Shown here piece by piece: positions 2,121 to 49,027 of a DNA stretch of 57,822 nucleotides (position 1 is its first letter; each line of letters starts with the position of its first letter). Below the pieces are notes generated by a model, which worked only from the letters and a program-made list of their open reading frames with translations, did not search any database and was not told the origin of the DNA. The DNA is from a virus. Lineage: Duplodnaviria; Caudoviricetes. The stretch is from IMG/VR virus record IMGVR_UViG_3300036885_000101, positions 1-57,822 of that record. One strand, written 5' to 3'. The position numbers were made by a program, and so were the translations under genes.

Positions 2121-3461
2121 ATGGAGCTCAAAGAATTCCAGGAAACCCTGACAAAGTGGCAGGGTGATATCCAGACTCAGGTCAACACGTTGCTCAAAGA
2201 GTCCGGCGACAAAGCCGATGGAGCGCGTAAAGTTCTGGAAACGGAACTCGACACCGTAAAGAAAACGCTAAACAGCGTCAACGAACAGCTCAAGACCATT
2301 TCGGCGCGGCATGTGCCGGGTCTGGACAAAGAGCTGGAAAAGCATCCCTTTGACTTCGGCATGCTTGCCAAAGCCATGTGCAATATCAAGTACGATATGC
2401 CGGGCGACCCGTGGGCGGAAGCCGGTCCCGAAAAAGAGATGATGGACCAGTCCATGAAACTGCGCGGCAAGGCTAACGAAGCCACGTCCGGCGCGGGCGG
2501 TGGATACCTGATTCCCGATGAAGTGACTAACAATTTCATCGACATGATCGTAGTGAACATGCCCCTTGCTGATCTTGGCATGAATATTGTCAAAGGTCTT
2601 GTCGGAGAACTTCCCGTTCCTCGCAAAACGGCGCGTACCGCAGGCTACATGGTCGGTGAAAACGGCAAACCGCCGGAAAGCTCCGTCACATACGGGGAAA
2701 TCACCCTTCGACCCAAGAAGGCAGCGGCGTTCAGCAAGCAGTCGAATCGCCTGATCTATCAGAGCCGTGGGGTTTCTGACAAGATCATACGCGATGACCT
2801 CCAGTACATCCTTCGGCGCACGATTGAGCAGCAGGCCATGACCGGAGCAGGTGCAGGCAAGCAGGCCAAGGGCCTGTACCAGTTCACGAGCGGTATGACT
2901 CCTTCCAGTGTCGCTCTTGCGGGAACAGGAACGGCGTTGACGACAGGTGGCGGACGCTTCAAGATCGACGATGCCAACCTGATGATGGACGACATCGAAA
3001 GTGCCGATGAAGCCTCAACACCGGGCGCAAAGATGGGCTTCCTTATGCATCCGCGCGTTAAGAATGGCATGAAACGCGAGCGCGTGCAGTTCTACAGCGG
3101 ACAAGCCGCAAGCGCTGGCATGCCTATTCTGCCAATGAATCTGCTCATGACCGATAAAGTTCTGAGCGACCAGCTTGGCCAGAAAATCGCATGCACGACA
3201 CTCGTTCCGTTTAACGAAACGGTAGGAACGTCCACGACGTGCTCCCGCGTGACATATGGAAACTGGGATTTGTTCTGGATGGGTATGTGGCGTGACCTTG
3301 TAATCAAGGTTTCCGACGTTGCCAGTGACGGTTCCACGGGTTCCGCGTTCCTGGATGATCAGATTTACATTGTCCTCTTTCAGGAATTCGACACGGCGCT
3401 CATGAGGGAAACCGCGATGACGCAGGCGACCGGTGCAGAAACGACAAAAGCGAACTGGTAA
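2121..3461 (+). CDS. Major capsid protein, HK97 fold, with N-terminal coiled-coil delta domain
   Basis: GGYLIPDE, VGENGKPPES..YGEITLRPKKAAA..SNRLI and YGNW motifs. Confidence 0.95.
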   Translation: MELKEFQETLTKWQGDIQTQVNTLLKESGDKADGARKVLETELDTVKKTLNSVNEQLKTISARHVPGLDKELEKHPFDFGMLAKAMCNIKYDMPGDPWAEAGPEKEMMDQSMKLRGKANEATSGAGGGYLIPDEVTNNFIDMIVVNMPLADLGMNIVKGLVGELPVPRKTARTAGYMVGENGKPPESSVTYGEITLRPKKAAAFSKQSNRLIYQSRGVSDKIIRDDLQYILRRTIEQQAMTGAGAGKQAKGLYQFTSGMTPSSVALAGTGTALTTGGGRFKIDDANLMMDDIESADEASTPGAKMGFLMHPRVKNGMKRERVQFYSGQAASAGMPILPMNLLMTDKVLSDQLGQKIACTTLVPFNETVGTSTTCSRVTYGNWDLFWMGMWRDLVIKVSDVASDGSTGSAFLDDQIYIVLFQEFDTALMRETAMTQATGAETTKANW

Positions 3462-3510
3462 AGACCGGTTCAAAAACTGAGGGCTATCAGTTTCAAAAGG
3501 AAAAAGTAAT

Positions 3511-3972
3511 ATGTCCAGAATACAGGAAGTTGTAGAAAGCACGCTGGTCAAGGACATGCATCCGCCGGTAGTTCTTACCGGTGTGACGGCAACCTTCGGC
3601 CAGTCCATCGATACGCAGGGTTTTGACAGTGCGGTCGTCAAGCTCAGCGTGAACACCTTTTCGGCTCCCGCGACGTTGAGCGCGATCCTTTACGAGGACT
3701 CTACGGATCAGGGCGACCTGACGAAGGTTCCCGTGACGCTTGCGAATCTCGGCGTTATTACCGGTAGCGGTGCGAACCAGATCAAAATTGGCGGTATCGC
3801 AACCAAGAACTACAAGCGATATCTGTCGCTTCGCATACAGGCAGGACAATCGAATGGCGCGAACCCGACAATCGGAATTTCCGCGACGATGATCCTCGGA
3901 AAGGCTGAAAAGGAAATCGTGGCGAATTCGCCGGTGTTCAAACTTATTGATGACGGCATCAATAAGGCATAG
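3511..3972 (+). CDS. Probable capsid decoration/cement protein
   Basis: Follows the capsid gene; beta-rich, SIDTQGFDS..KRYLSL pattern. Confidence 0.6.
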   Translation: MSRIQEVVESTLVKDMHPPVVLTGVTATFGQSIDTQGFDSAVVKLSVNTFSAPATLSAILYEDSTDQGDLTKVPVTLANLGVITGSGANQIKIGGIATKNYKRYLSLRIQAGQSNGANPTIGISATMILGKAEKEIVANSPVFKLIDDGINKA

Positions 3973-3990
3973 TTTTTCACATTAACAGGG

Positions 3991-4018
3991 GTGCGGGTGT
4001 CAAAGCCCGCATCTCTTT
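3991..4018 (+). terminator. Putative intrinsic terminator after the head genes
   Basis: GTGCGGG-tgtcaaag-CCCGCAT stem followed by ctcttt. Confidence 0.55.
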
Positions 4019-4031
4019 AAAAAAGGGAAAT

Positions 4032-4877
4032 ATGCTGCTATCAAGTTACAATCGACTTCTCCGGTATTGTGGCGCGGATGACATCTTGACTGACAACGCG
4101 AACAATCGCCGCCAGCTTATGACATGGCTCCCTGCCGTATCAAAAAATATTGAGAATTGGCTCAATCGTGGAATTCAATATCAGACTACCTTCACGGAGT
4201 ATTTTGATGTGGGCTTCCACAAGAACGAATTCTATCCGAAATATATTCCCTTGATAAATATAACGGACGTGTATGTTGATTTCCTTGGTATGTGGGATGG
4301 GAGAGAGTCACAATTATCAAGTATAAGTTATCATCCTGGATTGAACGGAAATTCACTTGTGCTTATATTTGCGCGACCGTTTGAGACGAAAAAGGGATTG
4401 CGCCTTCGGTATGACGGTGGGCTTGCCCTTGATGCGGTGCAATCCGTCTATGTTGTTATGGAAACAGGCGGGCCTTTCACGCCTGGGAAATTTGTCCATG
4501 GCGAAACGTCGGATGCTGTCGGAATGACCGTTGCGGATACCGGGACATCAATGACAATAGAAGTTTTGTATGGTGCTTTTACAATAGGGGAAACCGTCAC
4601 CGAATGGGATACTGAAACCGGGCCTGGGAATTCTTCCGCAACTGCTGTTTTAGTATCGGCAACGAGCCTATCCCTTGCCGAATCATACCCGGAAATCGTG
4701 AACGCCGTTGAACTGCAAATCCGGTACATGAAAAAGAACAAAGACCGCTTCGAGCAACAGACAATCGGCAAGGACGGCACATCGAATCGGCGCGTAGGAT
4801 ACCGGGGCATGAACGACAACGAACTTCAGCCGGAAGTCAAAATGATGCTTGGATATTTGAGAAGGATTGCGATATGA
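4032..4877 (+). CDS. Head-tail connector/adaptor with inserted beta domain
   Basis: Position; IENWLNR..TEYFD and LQPEVKMMLGYLRR ends typical of adaptors. Confidence 0.7.
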   Translation: MLLSSYNRLLRYCGADDILTDNANNRRQLMTWLPAVSKNIENWLNRGIQYQTTFTEYFDVGFHKNEFYPKYIPLINITDVYVDFLGMWDGRESQLSSISYHPGLNGNSLVLIFARPFETKKGLRLRYDGGLALDAVQSVYVVMETGGPFTPGKFVHGETSDAVGMTVADTGTSMTIEVLYGAFTIGETVTEWDTETGPGNSSATAVLVSATSLSLAESYPEIVNAVELQIRYMKKNKDRFEQQTIGKDGTSNRRVGYRGMNDNELQPEVKMMLGYLRRIAI

Positions 4878-11021: not shown

Positions 11022-11866
11022 TGTATACCTTCGATTTTCTCAGAGAAGTAATTCACGGAGATAAATCCCGCGCTGCCGCCGACATCGTTATTGACGGTGA
11101 ACCGACATACGAACAGGCGCAATTTATCTGCAATAATTCATGCATCATCTTTTGCAAGACCGACTACATTTTCATGCTGTTTGAAATACTTTTAACAAGT
11201 CCTAATAAAAGATACATTCTGATAACGCACAATTCAGACTATGCAATTGATTTCAGGTATTGGGAGAACAAGCCTGACAATATTCTTCGGTGGTACGCTC
11301 TCAATGTGGCGTACAAGCATCCCGACCTTGTGCCTATCCCAAGCGGAATGGAGCGGCCTTTAGGATGTGGATATTCAAGCGATGCAAATGTTCTTTTCGA
11401 GCAAATGCAGAAGCCAAGGACAATAAAAAACCTTGCGTACATGAACCACAATTCAAATAATAATCACGGTGAAAGGGATGTCGTTGACAGCCATTTTGAG
11501 GGCAAGTCCTGGGTAACTGTGAGGAAGCATGGAACTTCTTTCAAGGATTTTATTGAGAATTGCCACAACCATAGCTTTGTTATCTCTCCTCCTGGCAATG
11601 GCATTGATTGTCATCGAACTTGGGAAGCTTTATACATGGGTGCTATACCCATAGTAAAGCGTAGCCTTGTTACTGAGGCTTTTGTTGACTTGCCTATTTT
11701 GATTGTCGAGGATTGGACAACGATCACAGAAGAAATATTGAATATAGTTTTAGAAGAGTTCAAGGAAATGAAATTTAACTATGAAAAATTAACATTGTCC
11801 TATTGGATTAATAGGATAAAATCAGATAAAATTTATTTGAAAGAGGGCGCAAATGAACAAACCTGA
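11021..11866 (+). CDS. Exostosin/GT47-like glycosyltransferase
   Basis: ILITHNSD, PIPSG and FVISPPGNGIDCHRTWEALYMGAIPIV. Confidence 0.8.
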   Translation: MYTFDFLREVIHGDKSRAAADIVIDGEPTYEQAQFICNNSCIIFCKTDYIFMLFEILLTSPNKRYILITHNSDYAIDFRYWENKPDNILRWYALNVAYKHPDLVPIPSGMERPLGCGYSSDANVLFEQMQKPRTIKNLAYMNHNSNNNHGERDVVDSHFEGKSWVTVRKHGTSFKDFIENCHNHSFVISPPGNGIDCHRTWEALYMGAIPIVKRSLVTEAFVDLPILIVEDWTTITEEILNIVLEEFKEMKFNYEKLTLSYWINRIKSDKIYLKEGANEQT

Positions 11867-12431
11867 TTTTGGCCGTGATCGGTTCGAGGGGCAAATGAAT
11901 CCTTCGGAACGGGAGATTCTTTACGACTTGGTTTTGCAGGAAAGGCCTGATGTGGTCTGCGAGATTGGAACGTGTCGCGGCGGTGGATCAACATATTTCA
12001 TTGCAAAGGCATTGCATGCCAATGGAAAAGGAAAGCTCTATACTTGCGAGAATAACAAAGAATACTATGAATACGCTCGGGCTCTTTATGCCGGTAATCC
12101 TGATTTTGCAGGGCTTGAGGAATATGTACGCTTTCATTTTGGAGATAGCGAATATTGCTTTCATCGAATATTTGAAGGTGGTTTTGATGGTGGCATTGAC
12201 ATCGTTTTTCTCGACGGCGGCGCGGACTCAATAAAAATGGTCTATGACTTTGCAATGTTCCGGCCATACATACCGATAGGAAAATGGCTTGTTATGCACG
12301 ATTGGAACAACGGGAAAAGCGATTACATAAAGCCGATATTGAATGATGATAAAGATTGGAAATTCGTCAAGCAAGAAATCGGTCTTGTTGTTTTTCAGCG
12401 CATTGCTGACATTCACGGGAGCAATTCATGA
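11853..12431 (+). CDS. Class I SAM methyltransferase (Methyltransf_24-like)
   Basis: VCEIGTCRGGGST, IDIVFLDG, VMHD. Confidence 0.85.
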   Translation: MNKPDFGRDRFEGQMNPSEREILYDLVLQERPDVVCEIGTCRGGGSTYFIAKALHANGKGKLYTCENNKEYYEYARALYAGNPDFAGLEEYVRFHFGDSEYCFHRIFEGGFDGGIDIVFLDGGADSIKMVYDFAMFRPYIPIGKWLVMHDWNNGKSDYIKPILNDDKDWKFVKQEIGLVVFQRIADIHGSNS

Positions 12432-13597
12432 AAACAAGGCTTGCCCTAAATATTATCGTTGGAGCCGGTGACGGCCCTGTTCTTAATCGCCTTATGTCAT
12501 CATATGACATGAAGAAATTATTTGATGAAATTGTCATTGTAAGAACAACGGACGATCAGGAAGTCATTTCGGTCATTAACCAATATGCCGACAAAACAAC
12601 CAAGTTTGAATGGAATACCGAAGACTTTCCTAAAGGGAACTTCGGCGGCGCTCGTGATGCGGCAAGGCTTCTGACCAATTCGGAATGGATCATGTGGCTT
12701 GATTCAGATGATATGCTCGCTTCCGAAGAGGATATGGAAAAAATATTTACTAAGATAAAATCAATGCTCGCCGCTAATTCTGACCGCGATTATTTCGTGT
12801 TACCGTACATCCTTGGCATCTCCGATAAAGGTGAACCGATGAATGTTATTTCTAGGGAGCGTATTTTCAAACGAGAATCTACAATCAAATGGGTAAAACC
12901 TATTCATGAACAACTGACAATAAATACCGAAATACACAAGCGGGCTGACTTGAACGGCCTTGATATTCTGCATTGCCCGGTAAAGACCGGCGAACAAAGC
13001 GCGTCAAGAAACATCGAAATACTTGAAAACGAATATCTGAAACCGAATAGAGAGCGGCACGACGCTTTTTATTATGGCCGTGATCTTATCCAGTTGGATA
13101 AGTGGGAGAACGCTATTTCGATCCTTGTTGATTTCATTGAGACCGCCAATGAAGATTTGAGCTGCGTTTACGATGCTTCTTTGCTCATTGCAAAGTTTTT
13201 CATGTACAAGCAATTGCCGGACAAAAAACAGACCTCGCTTTGCGAAACTACGTCACCAATTGCCGAACAGTACGCGAGGATATGCCTATCAATAACGGAA
13301 TCGAATGCGGAGCCTTATACCGTCCTTGGCGATGTTTACATATCGCAGAGACGAAATAGGGATGCAATCAGGATGTTCAAGCAGGCAATGACAAAGCAGT
13401 TCGGGACCGGGAGCCTGCAAGACCGCTCGTTCTACGAGGAAATGCCAGCACGAAGGCTTGCCGAATTGTTTGTCTGGGAGAACGAACTTGAGCAAGCGAT
13501 ATGGTATAACAAAGTGGCAATGAAGCATTGTCCCGAAGATAAGAACTTGATTGAACAGCGAAAAAAGATCATCACCAAATTGCAAGAAACGGTATGA
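12428..13597 (+). CDS. GT2 glycosyltransferase with C-terminal TPR repeats
   Basis: FGGARDAA..WIMWLDSDD, W..PIHEQL, FYYGRD, TPR-like helices. Confidence 0.88.
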   Translation: MKTRLALNIIVGAGDGPVLNRLMSSYDMKKLFDEIVIVRTTDDQEVISVINQYADKTTKFEWNTEDFPKGNFGGARDAARLLTNSEWIMWLDSDDMLASEEDMEKIFTKIKSMLAANSDRDYFVLPYILGISDKGEPMNVISRERIFKRESTIKWVKPIHEQLTINTEIHKRADLNGLDILHCPVKTGEQSASRNIEILENEYLKPNRERHDAFYYGRDLIQLDKWENAISILVDFIETANEDLSCVYDASLLIAKFFMYKQLPDKKQTSLCETTSPIAEQYARICLSITESNAEPYTVLGDVYISQRRNRDAIRMFKQAMTKQFGTGSLQDRSFYEEMPARRLAELFVWENELEQAIWYNKVAMKHCPEDKNLIEQRKKIITKLQETV

Positions 13598-33720: not shown

Positions 33721-33894
33721 AATTCGACAAGACAGAGATCAAGCAGAGTCCGAAGCGGCAGGAAGAGCCGATGATCGAAATGAGGGAGATTGTAGAGGAT
33801 GCTCACAGCCGAGCTGTTGATATCATAACCGTTATTCGTGCGGCATTAAAAGACATTTCACAGAGATCGAATTAAACTAAAGAGGGGTACGCAA

Positions 33895-34869
33895 ATGAAG
33901 TATACAAACAAATTCAAATTGCCGCAGTCATTGGTTGACGCGCTGACTAATGACGACTACGATCTTACCAATGCCCCAGCAAACATCATATCGGTAACAA
34001 CCAGCATTGCTCCGGCAAAGCTTAAGACCCTTGAATGGCGGCATTGGGACGCATTAGAGGCTGATGTTTCAGAGCTTCTGTGGCGCATGATGGGAACGGC
34101 ATGCCACTACGTTGTCGAGCTTGCAGCGAAAGGAGAGAGGCTTTCCGAGGAACGCTGGTATCTTGATGTGATTGACTGGACGATTCACACAGCGCCGGAA
34201 GGTGTGAAGGCTCAGGATTGCAAATGGTTCAAGAAGGATCATATTTACCTTTCCGGCAAGATGGATGTTTACGATCACGCGACAAAGAAGGTGGAAGATT
34301 ACAAATTCACGTCGCTATGGTCCTGGATGTTTGATCGGGCGGCAAAGCCTGAACACATCGCGCAGTTGAATATGAACTCCTTTGCAATTCGTCTGCTTGG
34401 TTTTCCGGTTGAGAAGGCAAGTATTGTGATGTTGTTCAAGGATTGGTCGAAGAGCGCCATGCGAAAAGGAGAATACAACGACAAGTTTTCAGGTGAATGC
34501 TTGCTTCCTGTGAACGTCAAGGAAGTTGCGGCACCGATGTGGAACGACGACTTCACAAAAGAGTACATCATGCAGCGCATTAACCAGCACATTGAAGCCA
34601 AAACCAAGTATACCAACGATGACGACATACCGGAATGCACGCCGGAAGAGCGATGGAGCAAGCCGACCAAGTACGCGGTCATGAAGAAAGGTAAGGAGCG
34701 TGCGTTGCGGTTACACGACACGCTTGAACAGGCAGAGATCCATGCTAAAAGCGATCCGGCATTACAAATTGAAGAACGCAAAGGCGGAGATATCAGGTGT
34801 ACCGATTATTGCAGCGCAAATTTTCTATGTTCATATTACAAAAAAGTTTACGGTAACAGCAACAAATAA
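33895..34869 (+). CDS. PD-(D/E)xK (Cas4-like) exonuclease
   Basis: GTACH, LSGKMD..VEDYK, QLN, C-terminal C..YC..C; adjacent to ERF. Confidence 0.85.
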   Translation: MKYTNKFKLPQSLVDALTNDDYDLTNAPANIISVTTSIAPAKLKTLEWRHWDALEADVSELLWRMMGTACHYVVELAAKGERLSEERWYLDVIDWTIHTAPEGVKAQDCKWFKKDHIYLSGKMDVYDHATKKVEDYKFTSLWSWMFDRAAKPEHIAQLNMNSFAIRLLGFPVEKASIVMLFKDWSKSAMRKGEYNDKFSGECLLPVNVKEVAAPMWNDDFTKEYIMQRINQHIEAKTKYTNDDDIPECTPEERWSKPTKYAVMKKGKERALRLHDTLEQAEIHAKSDPALQIEERKGGDIRCTDYCSANFLCSYYKKVYGNSNK

Positions 34870-34898
34870 CTTGACTATGCTAATCAAGATCTGAACAT

Positions 34899-35081
34899 AT
34901 GAAACTTCACGAATCTGCTTTGACAGAAAAACAGATTGCAGCTCTTAAGAAAATGTATGATACTGGTAAGTTTTCTCACAGAGATTTAGCGAGAATGGTT
35001 AATGTGGATAAAAGTCAAATAAGCAGGTATTTTCAAAAGATGAAACCGATTACCACGGAGGATCAATCATGGAAACAGTAA
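34899..35081 (+). CDS. Small HTH DNA-binding protein
   Basis: FSHRDLARMVNVDKSQISR. Confidence 0.75.
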   Translation: MKLHESALTEKQIAALKKMYDTGKFSHRDLARMVNVDKSQISRYFQKMKPITTEDQSWKQ

Positions 35082-35986
35082 CAAAAGTAACAAACGGGAT
35101 ACAGGAAGCCGCAAAGGAGCCGATAGAAGCCGTAGTATCAAAAAAGGTGTTCCCGGTAAAGAAGAAATCCCTGCTTGCAGAAGCAATGGTAAAATGCCAG
35201 AGCCTTATCAATCCGGCAGGAAAGAGCGGGGAGAACAAGTTTGACCACTACAAGTATTCTACTCTTGAGGATTACTGCAATCAGCTTAAGCCGGCGCTAA
35301 CCGCTTCAGAGCTTGCGGTGTACTTCAATCAGGACGAGATTACAGACAAAGGTATCCGGGAAACATCGACAGGCAAGAAGGAATACGTAATCAGGGTGAA
35401 GCTTACCGCGACGATCATGCATAGTTCCGGGGAATGTATGGATGTGGTAGGATACGGGGAAGGCCAGGATCGAGGTGACAAGGCTATCTACAAAGCGATT
35501 ACAGGGTGCAAGAAGTACCTGCTTGCTAATGCGTTCAACATCCCGACGACTGACGACCCGGAAGTAGACTCACATGATGCTGAAGAAAAGTTACCGCCGA
35601 AAGGCCAGAGATTCAAGGACGAACAGGCGGTAGTGTCCAGAGCGTTGGTAGATCAAGAGAAAAAGGCCGCAGAATCTCCTCAGAAGGCCCAGGACGCAGG
35701 CAAACCAGTACCGGGAAGCCAACTGCCAGCCAAGAAGAAAGAACCCTCTGACGAGGACCAGGCAAAGGACGGACTGATCATAACGGCCCAGGTGAAAGCA
35801 TTGCAGAAAAAGCGTACTCAGTTCAAAATACCGGATGCTAAATGGAAAGCATGGCTATTTGCGAAATACGCTATCCTGACAGCGTGGAAGATAAAGCAGG
35901 AATGGTTTGCAGCGATAGATGGAACTGTGACACTTAACCCAGCAGAGATAATCGAATTTGTTACAGCAGATGATGTGGCGCAGTAG
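35069..35986 (+). CDS. erf: ERF-family single-strand annealing protein
   Basis: KSGENKFDHYKY, GEGQDRGDKAIYKAITGCKKYLLANAFNIPTTDDPE. Confidence 0.9.
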   Translation: METVTKVTNGIQEAAKEPIEAVVSKKVFPVKKKSLLAEAMVKCQSLINPAGKSGENKFDHYKYSTLEDYCNQLKPALTASELAVYFNQDEITDKGIRETSTGKKEYVIRVKLTATIMHSSGECMDVVGYGEGQDRGDKAIYKAITGCKKYLLANAFNIPTTDDPEVDSHDAEEKLPPKGQRFKDEQAVVSRALVDQEKKAAESPQKAQDAGKPVPGSQLPAKKKEPSDEDQAKDGLIITAQVKALQKKRTQFKIPDAKWKAWLFAKYAILTAWKIKQEWFAAIDGTVTLNPAEIIEFVTADDVAQ

Positions 35987-35995
35987 AGACATGAG

Positions 35996-36024
35996 TTTAC
36001 ATAATAAAAAAGACGATTTAAAAT
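35996..36024 (+). promoter_or_regulatory. Sigma70 promoter upstream of the cassette array (Pc-like)
   Basis: TTTACA-N17-TAAAAT, about 80 bp before the first GTT core. Confidence 0.65.
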
Positions 36025-36152
36025 GAAAAATAAATTAAACTATATAAATCATAATGATAACAATTGCAGACGACATATTGTAAAACCCGTCTGATGGATA
36101 TTACCTGTTGGCTGCAATGCCCGGTGAACCATGTAAAATAGGAGGTCGTCAA

Positions 36153-36500
36153 ATGATTAATGATAGGGTTTTAAAGTCAAGTGACATTATGCTGCTTGGT
36201 GATATTCTCGTTACAATAAACGGTTCTCAAATTCCTGTTATCGGGTATTCCGGCCAAGTTGTTTCTGATGCTGTCAACGATCATACAAACTTTATCGAAT
36301 GCCGCCGACCTCAAAAAGTAGAGGAGTCACCGGGCACAGTTCCGCCAGTAGGCGCAGCCAACAGCCAAAGTGTGACGGCGCTGAGTGAAATAGTTTGGGA
36401 TTGGCTCACTGAAAATGCTGTCGATGTTATGGTTGACAAGTGTGACGTTAATATGCTAATTCAGCGCCTAAATGCCGGAATATCGGCACTTCACACTTAG
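36153..36500 (+). CDS. Cassette 1 hypothetical protein
   Basis: GGAGG RBS; reads through the attC-like arm. Confidence 0.6.
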   Translation: MINDRVLKSSDIMLLGDILVTINGSQIPVIGYSGQVVSDAVNDHTNFIECRRPQKVEESPGTVPPVGAANSQSVTALSEIVWDWLTENAVDVMVDKCDVNMLIQRLNAGISALHT

Positions 36501-36553
36501 GCGAACGTTGGTTGCAATAGCGGCCAAGGACTTTACAAATAGGAGCGCGGCTT

Positions 36554-36823
36554 ATGAATATAATTTGCGATAAGTGTAAATATGTTTCTGGTTTTTCATC
36601 TGAATTTCCGTGCAATAGATGCGTTGTAATTGCCATTAATTGTTTTGTTCCAAGCAATGCCGCGCTCAATTCTGAGGAGTTGGCCGCTACAGTTCCGGCA
36701 GTAGCCGCAGCCAACAAACAAAGTGACAAAATTAAACCTTGTGGCTGGCAATATTCTTGTGGATACGTTCGGGTCAATAAGGTGTGCAAGGGTCCGACGT
36801 GTAATATATACGATCCGGTTTAA
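36554..36823 (+). CDS. Cassette 2 Cys-rich hypothetical protein
   Basis: AGGAG RBS; CxxC motifs. Confidence 0.6.
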   Translation: MNIICDKCKYVSGFSSEFPCNRCVVIAINCFVPSNAALNSEELAATVPAVAAANKQSDKIKPCGWQYSCGYVRVNKVCKGPTCNIYDPV

Positions 36824-36887
36824 CTTCGCACGTTTGTCAAACGTTGGCTGCAATGCCCGGTGAACCATTTAAACAGGAGGCGCGGGA

Positions 36888-37286
36888 ATGAGAAAGATAC
36901 ATTTGCAAATGGATGGGAATCAGATAGTGGCGACGTGGGACGATTTTGATTGTCTTGCTGTTTCTCCGGCAGGCTTTGGCGACAATATCGGCGAAGCCGT
37001 AAGCGCGTTGATAAACGAAACGGCTTCATATGCACTTAACGGCATCGTATCAAGCATTGAGAACGCAGCACACCTCACAAATAGTAGCCGTATTACAGAG
37101 GCAAGAGGTGAAGACCGCGCCTCTAAATCAGAGGAGTCACCGGGCACAGTTCCCGGAGTACCGGCAGCCAACACGGCCAGCCCGCAATTGCTGGCATTGG
37201 TTGCCCTTATGAAAGTATCGGCTACAGTATCAACGACAGCGGTTTTAAAAGTGATCTACGATGAGTTCCCGCAACTGCGGGCGTAG
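36888..37286 (+). CDS. Cassette 3 hypothetical protein
   Basis: AGGAGG RBS; DGNQIVATWDDF..SPAGFGD. Confidence 0.65.
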   Translation: MRKIHLQMDGNQIVATWDDFDCLAVSPAGFGDNIGEAVSALINETASYALNGIVSSIENAAHLTNSSRITEARGEDRASKSEESPGTVPGVPAANTASPQLLALVALMKVSATVSTTAVLKVIYDEFPQLRA

Positions 37287-37339
37287 GCGAAACGCGTTGT
37301 GCGAAATGCCCGTTTACTTTTTAATTATAGGAGGTGCTT

Positions 37340-37552
37340 GTGCAGTTAGCAATCGACATTCTTAGATCGGAGCTTGAGTCTTACAAGCAGTGTTTGCGCA
37401 CCGAAGGTAAGTATAGCGTGTATCCGGAGTATCGTGGCCCGAACGTGGATTTTGCCCGTAACATAGCTGAGTTGCAGGACGCAATAGCGCACCTCTTAAA
37501 AGCTGTGGAAGTAAACGGTCACATCGCACAACAAATAAATGGTGTTCGCTAA
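37340..37552 (+). CDS. Cassette 4 hypothetical protein
   Basis: AGGAGG before GTG 37340. Confidence 0.55.
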   Translation: MQLAIDILRSELESYKQCLRTEGKYSVYPEYRGPNVDFARNIAELQDAIAHLLKAVEVNGHIAQQINGVR

Positions 37553-37908
37553 CGCACATGCGGAGTACCGCACGTCACTATTTATCGAACGATGGGCGCG
37601 CTGGAATAAGAGATAAGAGAAGACACCCAGGTTTACCTAACAAGGTATTCAATTTTGACTCGCATGCTCTCGCGAGTAGGTTGCTTTATGAAACATTCAC
37701 TTTTTCAGGAATACAGTGTTCGGAATGGCGTAAAACGTCGTCTTTGCGTACCCATAGTGATCGAAGACTCCCACGCGAACTTCGAGGGTCGACGGTGTGT
37801 GAGCTTTAGGGATTGCGCCATTCCCTTTCTTAGCGAGTCGCAAGCTGGCGGGCCTATTGCTCGCAAATTAATACCGACGTTAGGCCGCTTAAAAACAAAG
37901 GAGAAATT

Positions 37909-38187
37909 ATGAAAGTCGTAGCATTGGAGATTAAAAAGCGCGAAAGTTACGATAGTGAATATCCGAATGAAATTGTTGGCGTTGTGCAAATAACCGGCGA
38001 AACGGGTAAAATGGAGGTTCGTCTTCGCCCTAAAACCGTTGCCGAAATTTTCAGAATGTGCAAATCCGATGTTCAAATGGTTGCCAATTACAACGCCAAC
38101 CAAGCGGCTTTGGCTTGTGAAAATGTCGCCGGTACTATCGAACTTCAGGTCGAAAACAACGATCTAAAACAAATCGCGGCGGCCTAA
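37909..38187 (+). CDS. Cassette 6 hypothetical protein
   Basis: AAGGAG RBS; stop codon lies inside the GCCTAAC inverse core, as in classical cassettes. Confidence 0.7.
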   Translation: MKVVALEIKKRESYDSEYPNEIVGVVQITGETGKMEVRLRPKTVAEIFRMCKSDVQMVANYNANQAALACENVAGTIELQVENNDLKQIAAA

Positions 38188-38249
38188 CAACCGCTTCAAT
38201 TCTGACTCGTGGGCGGATACAGGCTACAAAAAATTATAGGAGGCGCTAA

Positions 38250-38426
38250 ATGTTTGAAGAGTTTTGTCGTGTGTGTAAAAACAAACATAAATTTATAATT
38301 TGCGGTAATTGTAAAACAAAAATGGCCCCTCCGCCATATTATGAATTTAGCGCCTCAATTGAGGACGGCAAACCATCCGCAGCGGGACAAGATCCTTTAC
38401 CCGTTAGCGGCGCGAAAACTGAATAG
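38250..38426 (+). CDS. 58-aa CxxC protein nested inside the attC-like loop of cassette 6
   Basis: AGGAGG RBS; MFEEFCRVCKNKHKFIICGNCK (not in the ORF track). Confidence 0.55.
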   Translation: MFEEFCRVCKNKHKFIICGNCKTKMAPPPYYEFSASIEDGKPSAAGQDPLPVSGAKTE

Positions 38427-38486
38427 CTTATCACTCGCAAATTAAGCGGACGTTAGGGTGCGGCAAAGACTAAATAGGAGCGCGGC

Positions 38487-38753
38487 ATGATAAACGCAGA
38501 ACAAGGCATAGAGCGGTTTGAAGCACATTTTATTAATTGTGATGGAATAAACTCCATAAACGCGGATCTTATGAAAGAGGCAATTGACGCAATAAGAGCC
38601 GCGCTCCAAGAGAATAATAATACCGCTGTAGCTTTGCTCGATGAGATTGAAAACGCCCTCGGCGATTGCAAGGACAACTTAGACTTTTCTTGCCGAGTCA
38701 CGGAAATTTTACAACGGAGGCACGATGAAAAACAAAATCAAAAAATTGATTGA
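38487..38753 (+). CDS. Cassette 7 protein a
   Basis: AGGAG RBS. Confidence 0.6.
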   Translation: MINAEQGIERFEAHFINCDGINSINADLMKEAIDAIRAALQENNNTAVALLDEIENALGDCKDNLDFSCRVTEILQRRHDEKQNQKID

Positions 38754-39192
38754 ATCATTTTTAGACAACGAAATGGAAACAGACGAATTAGTTGATAACA
38801 TAGATGCAATTTGTCGCGCCTCCAACACAGAAATGAATATAAATAATTATTTGGCGGCACGTCGGTTGACAATAGAATCAAGCCTTGCCGCCGAAATACT
38901 CGCCGGAAATACGGTCAAGCAGCAATGCGAACAGACGGCGTTAGCAGAGATTTCGGCGATGGAACAAACATTTTTTAAGAGCGCCGCCAGCGAGCGGGAA
39001 ATTTCCCTTTCCGGGTGTGCATCGAGTGGTGCGTGCGGTTATACCGGATATCCAAGAATGTGCTATTCTACTAGTCCATGCGAGCATAAGATTGCGCTGA
39101 AAGCCGCAATCAACAATGGCATCAATCTTGACTCGCCACGTTTGCCAATCGGTAGCGGCGAAAATAAGAGTCTTTTGGGTACGCAGCATTAA
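38725..39192 (+). CDS. Cassette 7 protein b
   Basis: GGAGG RBS; runs into the attC-like arm. Confidence 0.6.
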   Translation: MKNKIKKLIESFLDNEMETDELVDNIDAICRASNTEMNINNYLAARRLTIESSLAAEILAGNTVKQQCEQTALAEISAMEQTFFKSAASEREISLSGCASSGACGYTGYPRMCYSTSPCEHKIALKAAINNGINLDSPRLPIGSGENKSLLGTQH

Positions 39193-39323
39193 GTCGGTTA
39201 CTGTCTATCAATGCGGTTGTAGGCTCGCAAATTATGCCTACGTTAGCGCATTTTTGGCTGCGGGAAATAAAACAAGATCGGGCGGCATAGGCCCGGCGTC
39301 ATGCCGGGCGAGGAGAATATAAA

Positions 39324-39629
39324 ATGAAACTTATTTGCACATTGTCTAAACCCGCATACGTTCAAAAAACAATGAAAGAATTATGCGAAAGAAAAGATAT
39401 TTCTTTGGTTCAAATTTTGGATAATTCTGAAGTAAAAGCGGAGTCACCGGGCACAGTTCCCGGAGTACCGGCAGCCAACACGGCCAGCCTAAAATTGCCG
39501 AGCACAGAAGATGTTTGGAATTATGTATATAATCATCATGAATTTTGCGAAGATTTTGCAAGAGAAAACGAAGCTCGTGATATATCAAAACTTGTTTACG
39601 AATTTATATATCGGCAACTTCAGGCGTAG
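39324..39629 (+). CDS. Cassette 8 hypothetical protein
   Basis: AGGAG RBS; shares ESPGTVPGVPAANTAS with cassette 3. Confidence 0.6.
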   Translation: MKLICTLSKPAYVQKTMKELCERKDISLVQILDNSEVKAESPGTVPGVPAANTASLKLPSTEDVWNYVYNHHEFCEDFARENEARDISKLVYEFIYRQLQA

Positions 39630-39689
39630 CCGGAACATTGCACGCAATAGGCCGCGAACCATATTGTAAACGCGCCAAGGAGAAAACAA

Positions 39690-39986
39690 ATGACAGTTTT
39701 TAAAGCCATAAAAAGCATTTGCTCTATGCGAATAAATGATGTGTCGGGCAATCGTTTACGGGTAAAGTATCGTTGGGTATGTGCAAAGAAAAAGTGTTCT
39801 TGTTTGTGTGCTGAATCAAATTGCGAAATAGTAAAAAGAATTGGCGCGTTAAAAAATGCGGAGTCGCTGCCTACAGTTCGCCCGAAGCGGGCCGCGCAAC
39901 AACGCAAGGAAGCAATATTACGCTTTTGTGGAAACTGTCAACGCAATGATGATAGGTCAAGCGAAAAGGTAAATTATCATAGATAA
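39690..39986 (+). CDS. Cassette 9 Cys-rich hypothetical protein
   Basis: AAGGAG RBS. Confidence 0.55.
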   Translation: MTVFKAIKSICSMRINDVSGNRLRVKYRWVCAKKKCSCLCAESNCEIVKRIGALKNAESLPTVRPKRAAQQRKEAILRFCGNCQRNDDRSSEKVNYHR

Positions 39987-40075
39987 CTTAATATTAGCGT
40001 GGCCGCATATGCGGTCGTATCACTCGCTGCTTAAGCGGGCGTTAGGCCGCAGCGGGGAACTAAATAGGAGGCGTG

Positions 40076-40456
40076 ATGAAACTTGATGTAAACAAAATAC
40101 TGGCGTTGCGGGCGATTTATAGTAGAGAAACAGGATGCCCAACATCGTGCCCTGACGGGAAGTTATTTACAATTCAATACACAACATGGCTCGAAGCTCG
40201 CGCCTCCAATACAGAACAGAATAATTCCGCTGTAGCTTTGCTTGCTGATGTTTATAGGCACATAGAAACGGGTGAGATTAAAATGGGTTGTTTGCGCGGT
40301 TTGAAACATGACATTGCAGTCTGGGCGCAATCCCCGCTGCCGCCTAACAATGGCATCAATCTTGACTCGCCACGTTTGCCAACAGTAAATCCGTCAAGTG
40401 AAATTGACGTGGGTGGAGTTGGTATTGGCCCTCGCGGTTGTGGCGACATAGACTAA
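40076..40456 (+). CDS. Cassette 10 hypothetical protein
   Basis: AGGAGG RBS; shares NNGINLDSPRLP with cassette 7b. Confidence 0.6.
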   Translation: MKLDVNKILALRAIYSRETGCPTSCPDGKLFTIQYTTWLEARASNTEQNNSAVALLADVYRHIETGEIKMGCLRGLKHDIAVWAQSPLPPNNGINLDSPRLPTVNPSSEIDVGGVGIGPRGCGDID

Positions 40457-40639
40457 TAATGCGGTTGCGCCTATGAACACAACGGAACTTTTATTTGAAT
40501 ACGGAATAGCTATCGTTTTTCTTATTGTCTGCATTTTTATAATACGAAGCGTAACCGTATTGTATGCGTTTCAGCGAATTAACTCAACGTTAATCACTTT
40601 TGCAATATGGATGATTATGTGTGTAAAAGAAAAAACTAA

Positions 40640-41047
40640 ATGTATAAAATAAAATACCGTGGCATATCTAAAGGCGGTAAGATCACGCTTGATCCAGGCC
40701 ACTTGGAAGCTTATAATGCAGCAGTGAGACGCTTAGAGGGTCAAAAGATAGAGGTAACGATATGCAAGCGCCAGAAGGCCAATACGCGCAGCGAGCAAAA
40801 GTATTTCTACGCTGTGATCGTGAAGATGATAGCCGATGAAATAGGTGAGAGCGAGACGCGAGCTTTTGAGATTATACAGGCGCAGTTTTTTGAATATGAG
40901 GATGCTAACGGACGGAAGTACATACGGTCAACGGCGCTTGGTGAATGGACAACGGTGGAGTGGGAAAGTCGGATGCAGGATATCCGGCAGTGGGCGCAGG
41001 ACTATTTAAACTTAACGATTCCAACGCCGAACGAAACAGACTATTGA
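40640..41047 (+). CDS. NinB/Orf-like protein
   Basis: RSEQKYFYAVIV..RSTAL..TVEW..I..WA..L.IPTPNE. Confidence 0.65.
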   Translation: MYKIKYRGISKGGKITLDPGHLEAYNAAVRRLEGQKIEVTICKRQKANTRSEQKYFYAVIVKMIADEIGESETRAFEIIQAQFFEYEDANGRKYIRSTALGEWTTVEWESRMQDIRQWAQDYLNLTIPTPNETDY

Positions 41048-41072
41048 CAGCGTGTTGAAATAGTGGTATATT
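41044..41072 (+). promoter_or_regulatory. Sigma70 promoter of the replication operon
   Basis: TTGACA-N17-TATATT. Confidence 0.8.
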
Positions 41073-41156
41073 ATTAAGCGGATCGTGGCACCTTGAGCAA
41101 GTGTCTAAAAGGATGTGTGCGGTGAAAACGAAAATACTCCCTGAAAAGGGATTACA

Positions 41157-41219
41157 AGAGCTGGTGTCGAATAAGGCATACCGCACAATGCCGCTCATCG
41201 ACACTGGCTCTTTTTATTT
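41157..41219 (+). terminator. Leader terminator/attenuator upstream of the replication initiator
   Basis: AGAGCTGGTGTCGA pairs with TCGACACTGGCTCT (two G-U pairs), followed by a T-run. Confidence 0.6.
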
Positions 41220-41232
41220 GTAGGAGGGGTAT

Positions 41233-41949
41233 ATGGATAGAAAATTTGAAGGTGTTTATTTTTCTTTTGAACTTTGGTTAGATAAGAGTATTCCAGCATT
41301 AGAAAAAATGGTTTTTGTCGAAATACGATCTCTTGATAATAATAAAGGTTGTTTTGCAGGTAACGATCATTTTGCAGAAATGTTTGGTGTTACCGAGAGA
41401 CAAGTACAGCGATATATTGCCTCTTTAAAAAACCGTGGGTATATTACTCAAGAATCTTTTGATGGAAGAAAAAGGGTATTGAGAGTATCTGAGGGAATGA
41501 GGGGTGACAAAAATGTCATATCTGATACGACATCTATGTCATTACAGACTAGAAGTAATTGTCGTGACATCTCTTCTATTATAGAGAAAGAACATAAAGA
41601 AAAGAATAAGGACAATTCTAAATACATTCCTTTAAGTGAATATCTAAAGGAGCGATTAATAAAAGAATCACCGGATGCTATCATAAAAGAGAGTCAAGTA
41701 AAAGATTGGTGTAACGATTTTAGATTAATGGTTGAGCAGGACAAGCGAACAGACCAACAGATAAGAGAAAAAATTGACGCGGTTTTTTCCGATTCTTTTT
41801 GGTGTCGGACTATTCAGTCAGCGTCGAAATTACGCTTGCGATGGAACGAGGGAAAATTGTCTCACTTAAATGTTGTGCAAATCGGTCACGACGATCCACC
41901 GGAAGAATTTGTTGATTCACCTAACGCCTACGACATGCCGCAACGATGA
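41233..41949 (+). CDS. Replication initiator (N-terminal winged HTH)
   Basis: GCFAGNDHFAEMFGVTERQVQRYIASLKNRGYI; C-terminal FW..IQSASKLR; precedes DnaB. Confidence 0.85.
   Translation: MDRKFEGVYFSFELWLDKSIPALEKMVFVEIRSLDNNKGCFAGNDHFAEMFGVTERQVQRYIASLKNRGYITQESFDGRKRVLRVSEGMRGDKNVISDTTSMSLQTRSNCRDISSIIEKEHKEKNKDNSKYIPLSEYLKERLIKESPDAIIKESQVKDWCNDFRLMVEQDKRTDQQIREKIDAVFSDSFWCRTIQSASKLRLRWNEGKLSHLNVVQIGHDDPPEEFVDSPNAYDMPQR
41506..41615. other. Putative replication origin: three 23-bp-spaced iterons plus an A-rich tract
   Basis: GACAAAAATGTC (41506), GACATCTATGTC (41529), GAAGTAATTGTC (41552) inside the initiator gene. Confidence 0.55.
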
Positions 41950-43334
41950 ACGAACATTATGATAAGATTCCACCGCAGGCTCTAGACGTGGAGCGCACAG
42001 TCCTTGGGTCAATGATGATCGACCGAGAGGCGGCGAACACGGCAATTGACATGCTTAGTGAAGGGTGTTTCTACGCAACACAGAACCAACGTGTATTCGT
42101 TGCTATGCGAAACCTTTATAATAAAAGCACGCCGATTGACCTGATAACGGTATGCCATGAGTTAAAAGATAAAAAGTGGTTGGAATCAGTAGGAGCAGAA
42201 CCGTACCTTTCTGAACTAAACAACAGTGTGGCTACAGCGGCGAATATCAAACATCATTGTCAAATATTGGACAATAAAAGGATACTCCGGGAGTTGATTT
42301 CAAACGCCGCCACAATAACCACAGACGCGGTTGAGGCTGAAGATCCAATAGCATGTCTTGAGCGGTCACAAAATAAAATCTATTCTATTGGTAATGTCTA
42401 CGAGGCAAAAAACACGCATATTCATGGCGCTTTGGTCAAATTCACAGAGGATATGTCGAGCAGAAAGTATGGTGAGCTGTCTGGACTTTCAACAGGGTTT
42501 GCGGACATCGACGACCTTACCGGGGGATTTCAGCGGAAAGACCTGATACTTATTGCTGGCAGACCTAGCAGTGGAAAGACAGCGTTAGAGTGCGCTATTA
42601 TTTTACGCATGGCGCGTGCAGGGATACCTGTAGGGGCCTTTTCAATGGAGATGGACGAGCGGTCTATTGCGTCACGCCTTGTGTGCCTGGACGCACGGAT
42701 AAACAGCGTGCATATCCGTAAGGCGATTTTGACCACAGAAGAAAAGGCTAAAATCAGTCTTGCTGTGAACAGCATTCATACCTTGCCGATTCACATAGAC
42801 GATTCGTTTCACCTGAATGTGTCGAAGGCCCGGAGCCGGTTGCGCAGGATGATATCAAATTACGGCATTCAAGCGTGTTTCTTTGACCACTGGCACCTGA
42901 TGGAGCCTGACCACGACATGAAGTACATGAAAGGTGCGGAGCTGATAAACGAGCGTGCGCGGCGTTTAAAGGGCCTTGCGAAGGACTTGAATATACCCAT
43001 CATTGCTCTTGCACAACTATCGCGGGAATCAGACAGGCGTGTTGTGAAGAGTCATAGACCTATTCTGAGCGATTTGAGAGAGGGTGGCGAGCAGGACGCG
43101 GATTTAGTCATGTTCACGCACCGAGAAAGCGAGTACCCGCCGATATTTAAAGGGAAAACGGCCGAGGCGATGGCTGAAGCACGCCAGAAGTGGGAAGCGG
43201 AGTATCTTGGCAAGGCAGAGATCATTGTAGCTAAACAGCGCAACGGGCCTCAAGGTAAGATAGTTTTAGGGTTTGAAAAGCAGTATGCAAGGTATTTTGA
43301 TGACAATGACACCAAGGCGACTGATGAATGGTGA
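41946..43334 (+). CDS. dnaB: Replicative DNA helicase
   Basis: IPPQALDVE, AGRPSSGKT Walker A, FSMEM, LAQLSR, SDLRE, KQRNGP. Confidence 0.96.
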   Translation: MNEHYDKIPPQALDVERTVLGSMMIDREAANTAIDMLSEGCFYATQNQRVFVAMRNLYNKSTPIDLITVCHELKDKKWLESVGAEPYLSELNNSVATAANIKHHCQILDNKRILRELISNAATITTDAVEAEDPIACLERSQNKIYSIGNVYEAKNTHIHGALVKFTEDMSSRKYGELSGLSTGFADIDDLTGGFQRKDLILIAGRPSSGKTALECAIILRMARAGIPVGAFSMEMDERSIASRLVCLDARINSVHIRKAILTTEEKAKISLAVNSIHTLPIHIDDSFHLNVSKARSRLRRMISNYGIQACFFDHWHLMEPDHDMKYMKGAELINERARRLKGLAKDLNIPIIALAQLSRESDRRVVKSHRPILSDLREGGEQDADLVMFTHRESEYPPIFKGKTAEAMAEARQKWEAEYLGKAEIIVAKQRNGPQGKIVLGFEKQYARYFDDNDTKATDEW

Positions 43335-43540
43335 TGTTGCGCCAAGTATCAAGACCGTGCACTTGTGGAAGCTACTACCGCGTTGATGATAAGTGTAATA
43401 AATGCGGCAAGGTTGATTCGGTTAAAGAAGAACACGAAGTTTTCACTGGACTTGTCACGGCGGCAGGCCCACAGTGGAGCAAGAAGAAACACAGATACCT
43501 TACGACGAAAGAAATTGCGGCAGGAGAAAGGGGTGGTTGA
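43328..43540 (+). CDS. Small zinc-ribbon protein
   Basis: CTCG..CNKCG. Confidence 0.5.
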   Translation: MVMLRQVSRPCTCGSYYRVDDKCNKCGKVDSVKEEHEVFTGLVTAAGPQWSKKKHRYLTTKEIAAGERGG

Positions 43541-48241: not shown

Positions 48242-48301
48242 TCGGTTTTATTTATATTATATAACAGTGTAATGCCAGTCTATTGGCGAAAGATGGATAA
48301 G

Positions 48302-49027
48302 ATGGGTTTGAAGGAAATCTCTAAAGGGCGCAGTGATGTTTTCAACGTACCTCTCGATAAGATCAAGATAATTCCTGGAAGAAACATTCGGACGGAAGAC
48401 CTTGGCGACCTGCACATGCTAGCCATGCAGCTCATTGCTGAGGGACAGAAGGAACCGTGCACGATCCGGTATTCCAAGGAAGAAGGGATAGTCGAGATCG
48501 TAGACGGAGAGCGCCGGCTTCGTGCGGCTTTGCTTGCGCGGAAAGACCACAAGTGGAAAGTAGATACCTTGAAGTGCATCACTGAGGAAGCCGGTATCAC
48601 CGAGGACAAGCGCATAGTAGCTATGTTGCACGCCAACGAAAGCAAGCCTCTGTTGCCGATGGAGCGTGCAGGAGCCTACCAGCGCCTACTCAACATGGAT
48701 TGGACACCCACAATGATTGCTGCGGCTATGGGATGTTCCAAAGCAGCGGTAGAGGGCTTCCTTGCGCTTGCGAAAGCGCCAGAAGCAATCAAGGATGCGG
48801 TGGCTAGAGGAAAGATGAGCGCCACGGCTGGTAAGAAGGCGGCAAAGGCCAAGCCTGAAAAACAAAGAGAGATCGTGGAAAAGGCTGAGAAAGGCGAGAA
48901 GATCAAGGTAAAGGACGCGGAGACGCACCGGACACAGTTCAGCCTGAAGGAAATCGAAGAGGCAATGAAAGGCTCGTGTCATGAGTGTGCGCTTAAAAAG
49001 GATCTAATTGCTGCATTGAGCGTGTAA
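48302..49027 (+). CDS. ParB/Srx N-terminal domain + HTH protein
   Basis: IVDGERRLRAA; ERAGAYQRLL..IAAAMGCS. Confidence 0.85.
   Translation: MGLKEISKGRSDVFNVPLDKIKIIPGRNIRTEDLGDLHMLAMQLIAEGQKEPCTIRYSKEEGIVEIVDGERRLRAALLARKDHKWKVDTLKCITEEAGITEDKRIVAMLHANESKPLLPMERAGAYQRLLNMDWTPTMIAAAMGCSKAAVEGFLALAKAPEAIKDAVARGKMSATAGKKAAKAKPEKQREIVEKAEKGEKIKVKDAETHRTQFSLKEIEEAMKGSCHECALKKDLIAALSV

Follow-up and report, generated by a model that had tools for sequence, protein, structure and literature searches.

A probable integrase-less integron-type cassette array in the early accessory region of a complete tailed phage genome

The window analyzed here is the whole virus record IMGVR_UViG_3300036885_000101 (Duplodnaviria; Caudoviricetes), a tailed phage genome from peat of 57,822 bases which is rated complete and possesses direct terminal repeats. 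The region 36107-40467 of this genome is composed of 10 units, all in the same orientation, and is probably a cassette array of the integron type without an integrase, known as a CALIN (cluster of attC sites lacking integrases), situated in the early accessory region of the phage. A sequence-only reading of the window had described the region as an integron-like array without integrase carrying shuffled early genes. The description holds in that two sites pass attC models and that the cassettes are common to other phages and reordered at their cores; the majority of the sites, however, fail the models.

All ten unit starts given in that reading were located at their places. Eight of them read GTT, while the unit at 37591 starts with GAT and that at 39637 with ATT. 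As peat contigs homologous to unit 9 have G at the first position, the A at 39637 is considered a mutation in this phage. The five inverse cores listed earlier were all present as well. To compare each start with the body of its own unit, the opening 45 nt of every unit were paired with the bodies of all units and the energy of the best duplex was calculated, using 25 units (10 from the window and 15 from the viral contig G002). The array of G002 was found with a 27-letter pattern of the internal element; contig G001 is nearly identical to it and ends within the array. The own-start duplex reached -24 to -37 kcal/mol in 20/25 units, whereas the other 24 starts gave a median of about -14. The own start ranked first of 25 in 19/25 units (5/10 window units and 14/15 units of G002). 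Within the window, cassette 1 (-31 kcal/mol) and cassette 9 ranked 1/25 and cassette 3 showed -37 kcal/mol, while the pairing of cassette 8 was weak (rank 8/25). Cassette 4 possesses an inverted repeat of 24 nt with 88% complementarity and cassette 10 an own-start complement of 18 nt with 94%.

In 20 of the 25 units, the first pair of the helix is formed by the G of GTT and the C of an internal AAC, with A as the next base after the AAC in 19 of these 20. When 19 distinct units are compared, pairs 1-3 never vary. Each of the pairs 4-9 occurs in 3-6 types and is of Watson-Crick kind in 13-19 of the 19 units, which is covariation, and positions 10-11 are mostly unpaired. Conservation of only the AAC and GTT triplets, as in the R''/R' cores of integron sites, was thus seen at the 8 of 10 window junctions with GTT and in 20 of 25 unit helices. 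The inverse-core AAC is found in each of the three codon phases and hence does not serve the protein. Over R-box positions 4-9, an inverse core agrees with the start of its own unit in 5.2 of 6 positions and with the next start in 2.8 of 6 (19 units, Wilcoxon p = 0.0005). The own-start complementarity is therefore far beyond chance, and the circular-permutation signature named in the sequence-only reading was confirmed.

The sites were scanned with proxy covariance models standing in for IntegronFinder and HattCI. The models were trained on known integron attC sites only, with no window sequence, taken from two sources whose accessions are named in PMC9892861: a Vibrio phage bearing part of a chromosomal integron and a P1 phage that carries class 1 integrons. 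Model R1 was built from 10 Vibrio sites and has a canonical consensus fold. Model R2 was built from 16 full and one partial Vibrio sites and 6 class 1 sites, all aligned by R1, and includes one reverse-strand Vibrio match. A MAFFT alignment joining class 1 and Vibrio attC sites misplaced the 3' arms and was replaced by the Vibrio-only model aligning the class 1 sites. With filters off, R1 recovered 7/7 class 1 sites with exact borders at 11.2-22.7 bits; in the same 69 kb, 13.5 bits was the best score outside attC sites, and a true Vibrio attC was matched on its reverse strand at 19.4. For R2 the search space was 95.6 kb, formed by the window and eight array loci. In a control of 943 kb of other viral DNA, R2 gave no match of 20 bits or more, the best being 17.3.

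Only two sites exceed 10 bits in the whole window. The site 39108-39248 (+) scored 22.0 bits with R1 and 29.2 bits with R2 (E 3.8e-5), with exact R''..R' borders. The site 37635-37885 (+) was matched by R2 over its full length with exact borders at 24.7 bits (E 7e-4 over 95.6 kb, 3.5e-5 in the array). Elsewhere in the search space, two junction sites of the array locus L024 scored 22.9 and 17.9 bits and all else remained below 12 bits. In the R2 alignments, the bulge position and even the unpaired motifs beside the arms are common to the window and to known attC sites. Three further places show homology to the two model-recognized sites, namely the site 38181-38458 and the half sites 40007-40047 and 40342-40382. 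In the case of 38181-38458, both ends show this homology and the arms pair with a bulged C; it was reported by neither R1 nor R2, possibly owing to its length. The half site of cassette 10 is identical over 37 nt to 39112-39148, and its R''-L'' half is not followed by an L'-R' half. attC sites carry extrahelical bases, and a CALIN is delimited by attC sites lying close together. With the proxy model, two such sites were found 1.2 kb apart, with a homologous third between them and no integrase.

After the inverse core, the second arms close on bases just 5' of the next GTT. The bulged arms noticed from the letters alone are real and are placed at the canonical attC bulge position: in the three full TTCAA-type sites, the bulged C falls in the bulge column of the Vibrio and class 1 sites. 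In the GCAGCCAAC-type sites the arms also pair, and a consistent bulge was not seen. Between the second arms lies a protein C-terminal tail in units 1-3, 8 and 9, almost nothing in unit 4, or a separate small open reading frame (ORF; 37688-37912 and 38250-38426).

The own-start pairing does not end with the R box. With a length of about 45 nt it passes the ribosome-binding site and reaches the start codon, and it covaries. The first part of this leader helix, H1, has 9 bp and corresponds to the R box. It is followed by a 2-nt loop on the leader side, opposite to which are 2-17 nt often forming a small covarying hairpin. H2 has 10-12 bp, and in H3 the ribosome-binding site up to the start codon is paired with the anti-leader, which is situated inside the same ORF, 150-250 nt downstream. 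In the whole-RNA fold of cassette 3, the leader:anti-leader helix with paired Shine-Dalgarno sequence is present in both minimum-energy and centroid structures (z = -3.14, 0/100 shuffles as good). The leader of cassette 4 is likewise paired in both structures (z = -2.13, 3/100 shuffles as good). The helix is an added feature which may have two non-exclusive roles. In untranslated mRNA, the pairing of the leader with the anti-leader of its own gene would hide the ribosome-binding site. In an excised circle, anti-leader, R'', arms, R' and leader would form one continuous stem, making the attC stem longer by ~35 bp.

Cassettes of the window were found in other contexts. The viral contigs G001 and G002 contain a unit with 85.5% identity to cassette 2 over 359 bp. 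The homology stops within ~4 nt of both GTT cores and the neighbors are unrelated in the two phages, as expected from the earlier proposal that homologous genes elsewhere break at G^TT borders. A DNA search with window 33800-43400 showed that G001 and G002 have cassette pieces in common with it and nothing else, and at the protein level 15.9 kb of G002 matched the window only in cassette 2 (along with an overlapping frame) and in one ORF of 24% identity. A scan of metagenomes with the 27-letter pattern gave 11 loci, in which chance matches were judged by reading the translations. Arrays of like build were present in six metagenome contigs (L014, L015, L017, L019, L021 and L023, the last identical to G002) and in three bin contigs. 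The matches in L013 (6469-6495) and L020 (2117-2143) were rejected as chance matches to a purine nucleoside phosphorylase-like motif and those in L018 and L022 as chance matches in a MurG-like gene, while L016 has no array. The common linker peptide of the cassettes resembles these motifs by chance and forms a trap in pattern searches.

Peat contigs from four runs labelled peat metagenome, belonging to four studies, were aligned on 33800-43400, and uncovered parts were not counted as evidence. They diverge from the window at junctions (36107, 36500/36507, 36511, 36838, 39632 and 39638). In 2 runs the match begins exactly at 36107, with other DNA before it. One contig joins unit 1 directly to unit 9, and others carry unit 9 behind other DNA with the canonical G at the core. 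Among contigs, then, the order variants foreseen from the sequence exist, as a unit 1 to unit 9 order and as breaks at 36107, 36507 and 39638.

The same contigs also diverge at leader ends (36545, 36884, 39662 and 39685), at internal-element starts (36336 and 37113) and at 39909, just past the inverse core. Joints which keep leader and internal element and replace the cargo were seen from 36545 to 36675 (2 runs), 36884 to 37113 (1 run) and 39685 to 39860 (3 runs), and one joint from 36366 to 39492 combines head 1 with tail 8. Similar exchanges were found in the related arrays. In L019 a different cassette succeeds the end of unit 1, and another head precedes the tail of unit 8; in L014 the tail of unit 3 likewise stands behind another head. 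Among fourteen homologues of the cassette 2 protein, the N-terminal part is associated with at least 6 different tails and the tail with four different heads. The switch lies right after the AAC of the inverse core, and N- and C-terminal parts combine freely at the linker. From these divergences and joints it follows that whole cassettes move and that element and cargo also recombine separately. In run X6, the summed contig depth was 417 at 36368-36688 (unit 1 tail and unit 2 leader) and 123 at 39578-39898 (unit 9 leader), compared to 2-4 for the flanking phage genes, so the conserved elements are common to many genomes and greatly outnumber this phage. The sub-cassette mosaicism may plausibly come from a second process in which conserved elements of 40-60 nt are exchanged by homology, probably through the exonuclease and Erf of the phage itself.

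Such exchange could also be the whole explanation. In that case no site-specific recombinase would act, and the region would be a hyperplastic early region in which the conserved 40-60-nt boundary elements serve as homology arms for cargo swaps by exonuclease and Erf between co-infecting phages. The pairing would then be selected in mRNA for translational control or stability, and the attC likeness would be convergent or vestigial. This would be akin to the modular shuffling of promoter early stem-loop (PeSL) cassettes of T4-type phages, which is published along with mini-circles (Arbiol et al. 2010, PMC2839356). The exonuclease and Erf genes directly upstream, the mosaic borders at the edges of every conserved element and not at G^TT alone, the reassorting heads and tails, the free combination of protein parts at the linker and the depth of 417 against flanks of 2-4 in one run all agree with this explanation, as does the leader helix with paired Shine-Dalgarno sequence as minimum-energy and centroid RNA structure. 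PeSLs also resemble the array in being short repeats set among small non-essential early genes, through which modules are shuffled from phage to phage. These elements in T4-type phages were reportedly also treated by Comeau et al. in 2014. However, GTT/AAC is invariant at the helix end and AAC stands in all codon phases, which pairing alone would not need. Two sites are recognized by models of true attC, including unpaired motifs and bulge position. The cassette 2 borders have at most about 9 nt in common in the two phages, which is too short for a one-step annealing exchange, and G.T wobble in the leader helices is not commoner on the mRNA strand (15 vs 26). A PeSL is composed of a sigma-70 promoter and a local terminator stem-loop and recombines by homology, whereas the array junctions have neither a promoter nor a terminator consensus, and the array helices are long-range, cassette-specific, covarying and end in invariant GTT/AAC. 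Homology-driven swapping as the only process is considered unlikely.

Regarding the enzyme, the earlier statement that no tyrosine recombinase is encoded was borne out in the complete genome, which showed no match to tyrosine recombinases (PF00589), to serine recombinases (PF00239) or to Y1 transposases. A complete integron with intI beside attI and the array was not found either, as no PF00589 match exists in the 57.8-kb genome, G001 or G002. An IS200/IS605-type Y1 transposase gene (G002:C1:49318-49668 (-), 121 bits) stands between two cassettes of G002 and is read as an insertion. An ORF with a TnpB-like zinc-finger look, judged by eye, lies ~3 kb beyond that array (reverse complement of L008, ~11655-12785).

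One bin contig, G003:C371, encodes a tyrosine recombinase of 288 aa. A gap of 17 nt separates the end of this gene from the opening GTT core of an array which runs in the same direction. Among protein families the enzyme comes closest to Xer types, none of which reaches its cut-off (XerA-type 202 bits vs 220), and the match to the integron integrase family TIGR02249 is 149 bits, split in two stretches, vs a cut-off of 265. Among solved structures, archaeal XerA is nearest and IntI4 is third. The protein has 42 relatives (P0016-P0057) of 48-88% identity, several on contigs of 25-94 kb. As a close homologue was found in 0/300 genomes of the same order, it is not the housekeeping Xer of that lineage. 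A scan of the viral collection with this recombinase alone gave nothing, and with the family alignment gave relatives of at most 38% identity only.

These results introduce a further possibility, a separate phage-side integron-like system whose Xer-like tyrosine recombinase family is carried by some members of the population, while phages such as the present one would have lost it or would obtain it from a prophage or a co-infecting relative. The adjacency and orientation of the gene, its Xer-like character without IntI insertions, its 42 relatives, the lack of close homologues in the 300 genomes and the failure of the majority site type in integron attC models favor such a system. The enzyme is nevertheless seen at 1 array only, being absent from the window (complete), from G002 (74% complete) and from the examined stretches around the array loci L025 and L026. 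The adjacency may be a coincidence, since a temperate-phage integrase is often beside early accessory genes, and the 80 most similar recombinase loci of the viral collection (<=38% identity) show no attC-model match of 20 bits or more. Such a separate system appears quite improbable. A related version, a peat-phage form of the integron, is possible though doubtful. In this form the site would have grown to a ~250-nt element round a short cargo ORF, supplying the ribosome-binding site, linker peptide, C-terminal tail and stop, with a translation start kept silent by its own pairing until this is opened, and it would be moved by the Xer-like family and not by IntI. If so, cassette exchange and expression would be coupled through one nucleic-acid fold. 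A Xer/dif-module reading was rejected, as the repeats are cassette-specific and covarying and not one conserved protein-binding sequence.

In the integron-type cassette array, which is the preferred reading, each cassette starts at G^TT with a leader containing the ribosome-binding site, followed by a small cargo ORF. It ends with a folding site composed of the inverse core (..YAAC), a second pair of arms in which one base is bulged, and the G^TT of the following cassette. The proposed mechanism is that folded single strands would be cut at the conserved AAC/GTT by a tyrosine recombinase acting in trans, which may be a host integron integrase or a Xer-like enzyme such as that beside the related array. 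Whole cassettes would exit as circles, which would account for the match of the inverse core to its own start, and enter other arrays among the peat phage population at G^TT.

A number of results weigh against this reading. The attC models pass just 2 of ~10 window sites and, in the other arrays, 1 site above 20 bits (L024). The GCAGCCAAC-type sites, which are the majority, fail with at most 6.1 bits, the best of the type being the site of cassette 2 (36709-36849, 6.1 bits, right borders); the covariance-model check proposed from the sequence gave 29.2 and 24.7 bits for two sites and no such score for the remainder. Three sites, of 251, 277 and 141-170 nt, are longer than attC sites usually are and either undergo translation or contain ORFs. 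The bottom-strand folding expected for attC was found for 36709-36849, an end-paired hairpin (z = -2.78 on the bottom vs -0.68 on the top strand), but 39108-39248 alone folds no better than shuffles on either strand (z = +0.33 and +0.83). It had also been proposed that arm mismatches are mostly A.C on the top strand, which holds only in part. The L arms do favor the bottom strand, being better there by a mean of 1.6 kcal/mol in 14/24 sites and worse in 9/24 (p = 0.015, with several homologous and hence non-independent copies), whereas the leader helices show no strand bias (G.T pairs 15/664 on top and 26/656 on bottom; energies equal, p = 0.30). The strand-bias argument is thus weak. The leader pairing reaches the start codon, beyond what attC needs. 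In the Vibrio integron array, analyzed by the same method, the own-start duplex is only -9 to -20 kcal/mol and is first-ranked in 4/15 cassettes, so extended leader pairing is not general to integron cassettes. The separate assortment of leader, cargo, internal element and tail needs more than IntI crossover at G^TT. IntI is absent from the phage, and none is above cut-off in the bins G003-G005 holding related arrays. The recombinase of G003:C371 is Xer-like and lacks both IntI-specific insertions when aligned with IntIA and IntI1, and it adjoins 1 array only.

The phage genome carries nearly all its genes on the + strand, and recognizable head, portal, terminase, replication and recombination genes are present. 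The array stands between the exonuclease/Erf recombination genes and the replication genes (Table 1). The spot between recombination and replication genes is the usual home of small early accessory genes. Portal and capsid show at most 26% identity to the nearest cultured phages, so no host is assignable. The labels of the bins with related arrays (uncultured bacterium, Thermoplasmatales archaeon, Paceibacterota bacterium) were rejected as host evidence as they are mutually discordant. A blastn search of the array against the GenBank phage collection gave no match. In the whole window, no Rfam family was matched at gathering score and no tRNA was found, and 0/10 cargo proteins matched Pfam (E <=0.01). 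A ParB-like partition protein is encoded at 48272-49027 (PHROG 1033, E 2e-39), which in an integrase-less phage hints at a plasmid-like prophage state.

One promoter-like site (TTTACA-17-TAAAAT, 10/12 positions, a match to the consensus only) lies in the AT-rich stretch that separates erf from cassette 1. Promoter-like and terminator-like sites are not enriched in the array region (16 found vs 10.5 +/- 3.2 and 8 found vs 6.4 +/- 2.7 in shuffles, respectively), and none of the junctions of the array has a promoter or terminator consensus. Sigma-54/sigma-70 promoters at the junctions, suggested by eye, were dropped, as the spacing is unfit and the -10-like hexamer would overlie the ribosome-binding site. 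In cassette 7, the ORFs 38487-38753 and 38725-39192 overlap by 29 nt in different frames and could be two genes, a frameshift or a programmed shift.

Table 1. Coordinates of the array units and neighboring features in the window.
Feature	Position	Strand	ORF	Leader, anti-leader and site
Exonuclease gene	33895-34869			Upstream of array
Erf-like annealing protein gene (erf)	35069-35986			Directly upstream of array
Promoter-like site	35996..36024	+
Cassette 1	36107..36506	+	36153-36500	Leader 36107-36152; anti-leader + R'' 36305-36362; GCAGCCAAC-type site 36356-36513
Cassette 2	36507..36842	+	36554-36823 (CxxC protein)	Anti-leader 36658-36715; site 36709-36849
Cassette 3	36843..37295	+	36888-37286	Anti-leader 37114-37172; site 37166-37302
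Cassette 4	37296..37590	+	37334-37552	Short 72-nt attC-like site 37526-37597, R' degenerate (GAT)
Unit 5	37591-37878	+	Nested 37688-37912; no cargo ahead of attC site	Site 37635-37885, 251 nt
Cassette 6	37879..38458	+	37909-38187, stop codon within R''	277-nt attC-like site 38181-38458 around 58-aa ORF 38250-38426
Cassette 7	38452..39248	+	38487-38753; 38725-39192	attC site 39108-39248
Cassette 8	39242..39636	+	39324-39629	Site 39473-39643, R' mutated (ATT)
Cassette 9	39637..40040	+	39690-39986	Site 39894-40047
Cassette 10	40041..40467	+	40073-40456	R''-L'' attC half only (40342-40382); array end
Replication initiator + DnaB-type helicase	41233-43334			Downstream of array

The related arrays showed a few other features. 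A larger cargo unit of G002 (reverse complement of L008, ~3431-4143) has a DNA methyltransferase-like DPPW motif, judged by eye, along with its own matching start and inverse core. The cargo ORF L024:4779-5120 is HNH-endonuclease-like by eye. The locus L025 (G004, a 168-kb contig in a bin labelled Thermoplasmatales) has a like-built array on the - strand, within ~2 kb of one end of the 8-kb stretch examined, and an adenylosuccinate synthetase gene 3 kb from the array. G001 and G002, whose contigs are 99.4-99.98% identical, differ by an intergenic insertion of 295 bp (L009:7799-8094; reverse complement of L008, ~880) with a short flanking direct repeat, a promoter-like site and a T-rich structured stretch, which is not attC-like.

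Phage CALINs were described by Qi, Rajabal, Ghaly, Tetu and Gillings 2023 (PMC9892861), in the accessible part of which 17 clusters are reported in 10,705 phage genomes, a cluster needs at least 2 predicted attC sites, DNA methyltransferases are among the cargo and IntI1 recombined 5/6 tested sites. As integrase-less attC clusters in phages are thus published there, this kind of array is already known. The array shares with those clusters the co-oriented cassettes, the attC-type boundaries and the absence of an integron integrase, and the unit of G002 with a methyltransferase look is similar to their cargo. Compared to that part of the paper, the new features are the array size, the mix of canonical-like and unrecognized sites, the translation through sites and nested ORFs, the covarying 45-nt leader pairing and the Xer-like neighbor. 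Here 10 units are present, and at least 15 in G002, although the supplementary tables of the paper may list larger arrays; most sites are unrecognized by attC models, and the sites either encode protein tails or contain ORFs.

Sedentary chromosomal integron arrays, for which the Vibrio array in phage MK672802 served as control, similarly have many small cassettes of unknown function and one or a few homogeneous attC types. The cargo of this Vibrio array includes toxin-antitoxin and other small genes. It resembles the present array in the R box, the short spacer, the helix with a bulged base on the 5' arm and the variable loop. Unlike the Vibrio array, the phage array has no intI and no recognizable attI, its ORFs run through R'' into the site, at least 2 unrelated site types are mixed, and the own-start pairing is extended. 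In integron arrays, expression depends on the translation of cassettes and not just on promoter distance, as seen in work on mRNA stability in class 1 arrays (Carvalho et al. 2024, PMC11511950); the abstract does not describe a built-in anti-ribosome-binding site for each cassette. In a literature search by title or abstract, no paper was found on anti-ribosome-binding-site pairing, nested ORFs or related array features.

Integrons are the main known device for bacterial stockpiling and swapping of small genes. The phage examples in the accessible part of the published survey (PMC9892861) are few and defined by as few as two predicted sites. The present array has ten cassettes in a complete recombinase-less phage, is common piecewise to unrelated phages and is abundant in several peat data sets, suggesting that phages trade their early accessory genes, probably with anti-defence genes among them, in the same exchange currency. 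The leader:anti-leader helix would either couple translation to the recombination site or stabilize the excised circle, and either would be a new layer in the expression or movement of cassettes. The Xer-like enzyme beside one array is a candidate second recombinase which may be able to use attC-like sites.

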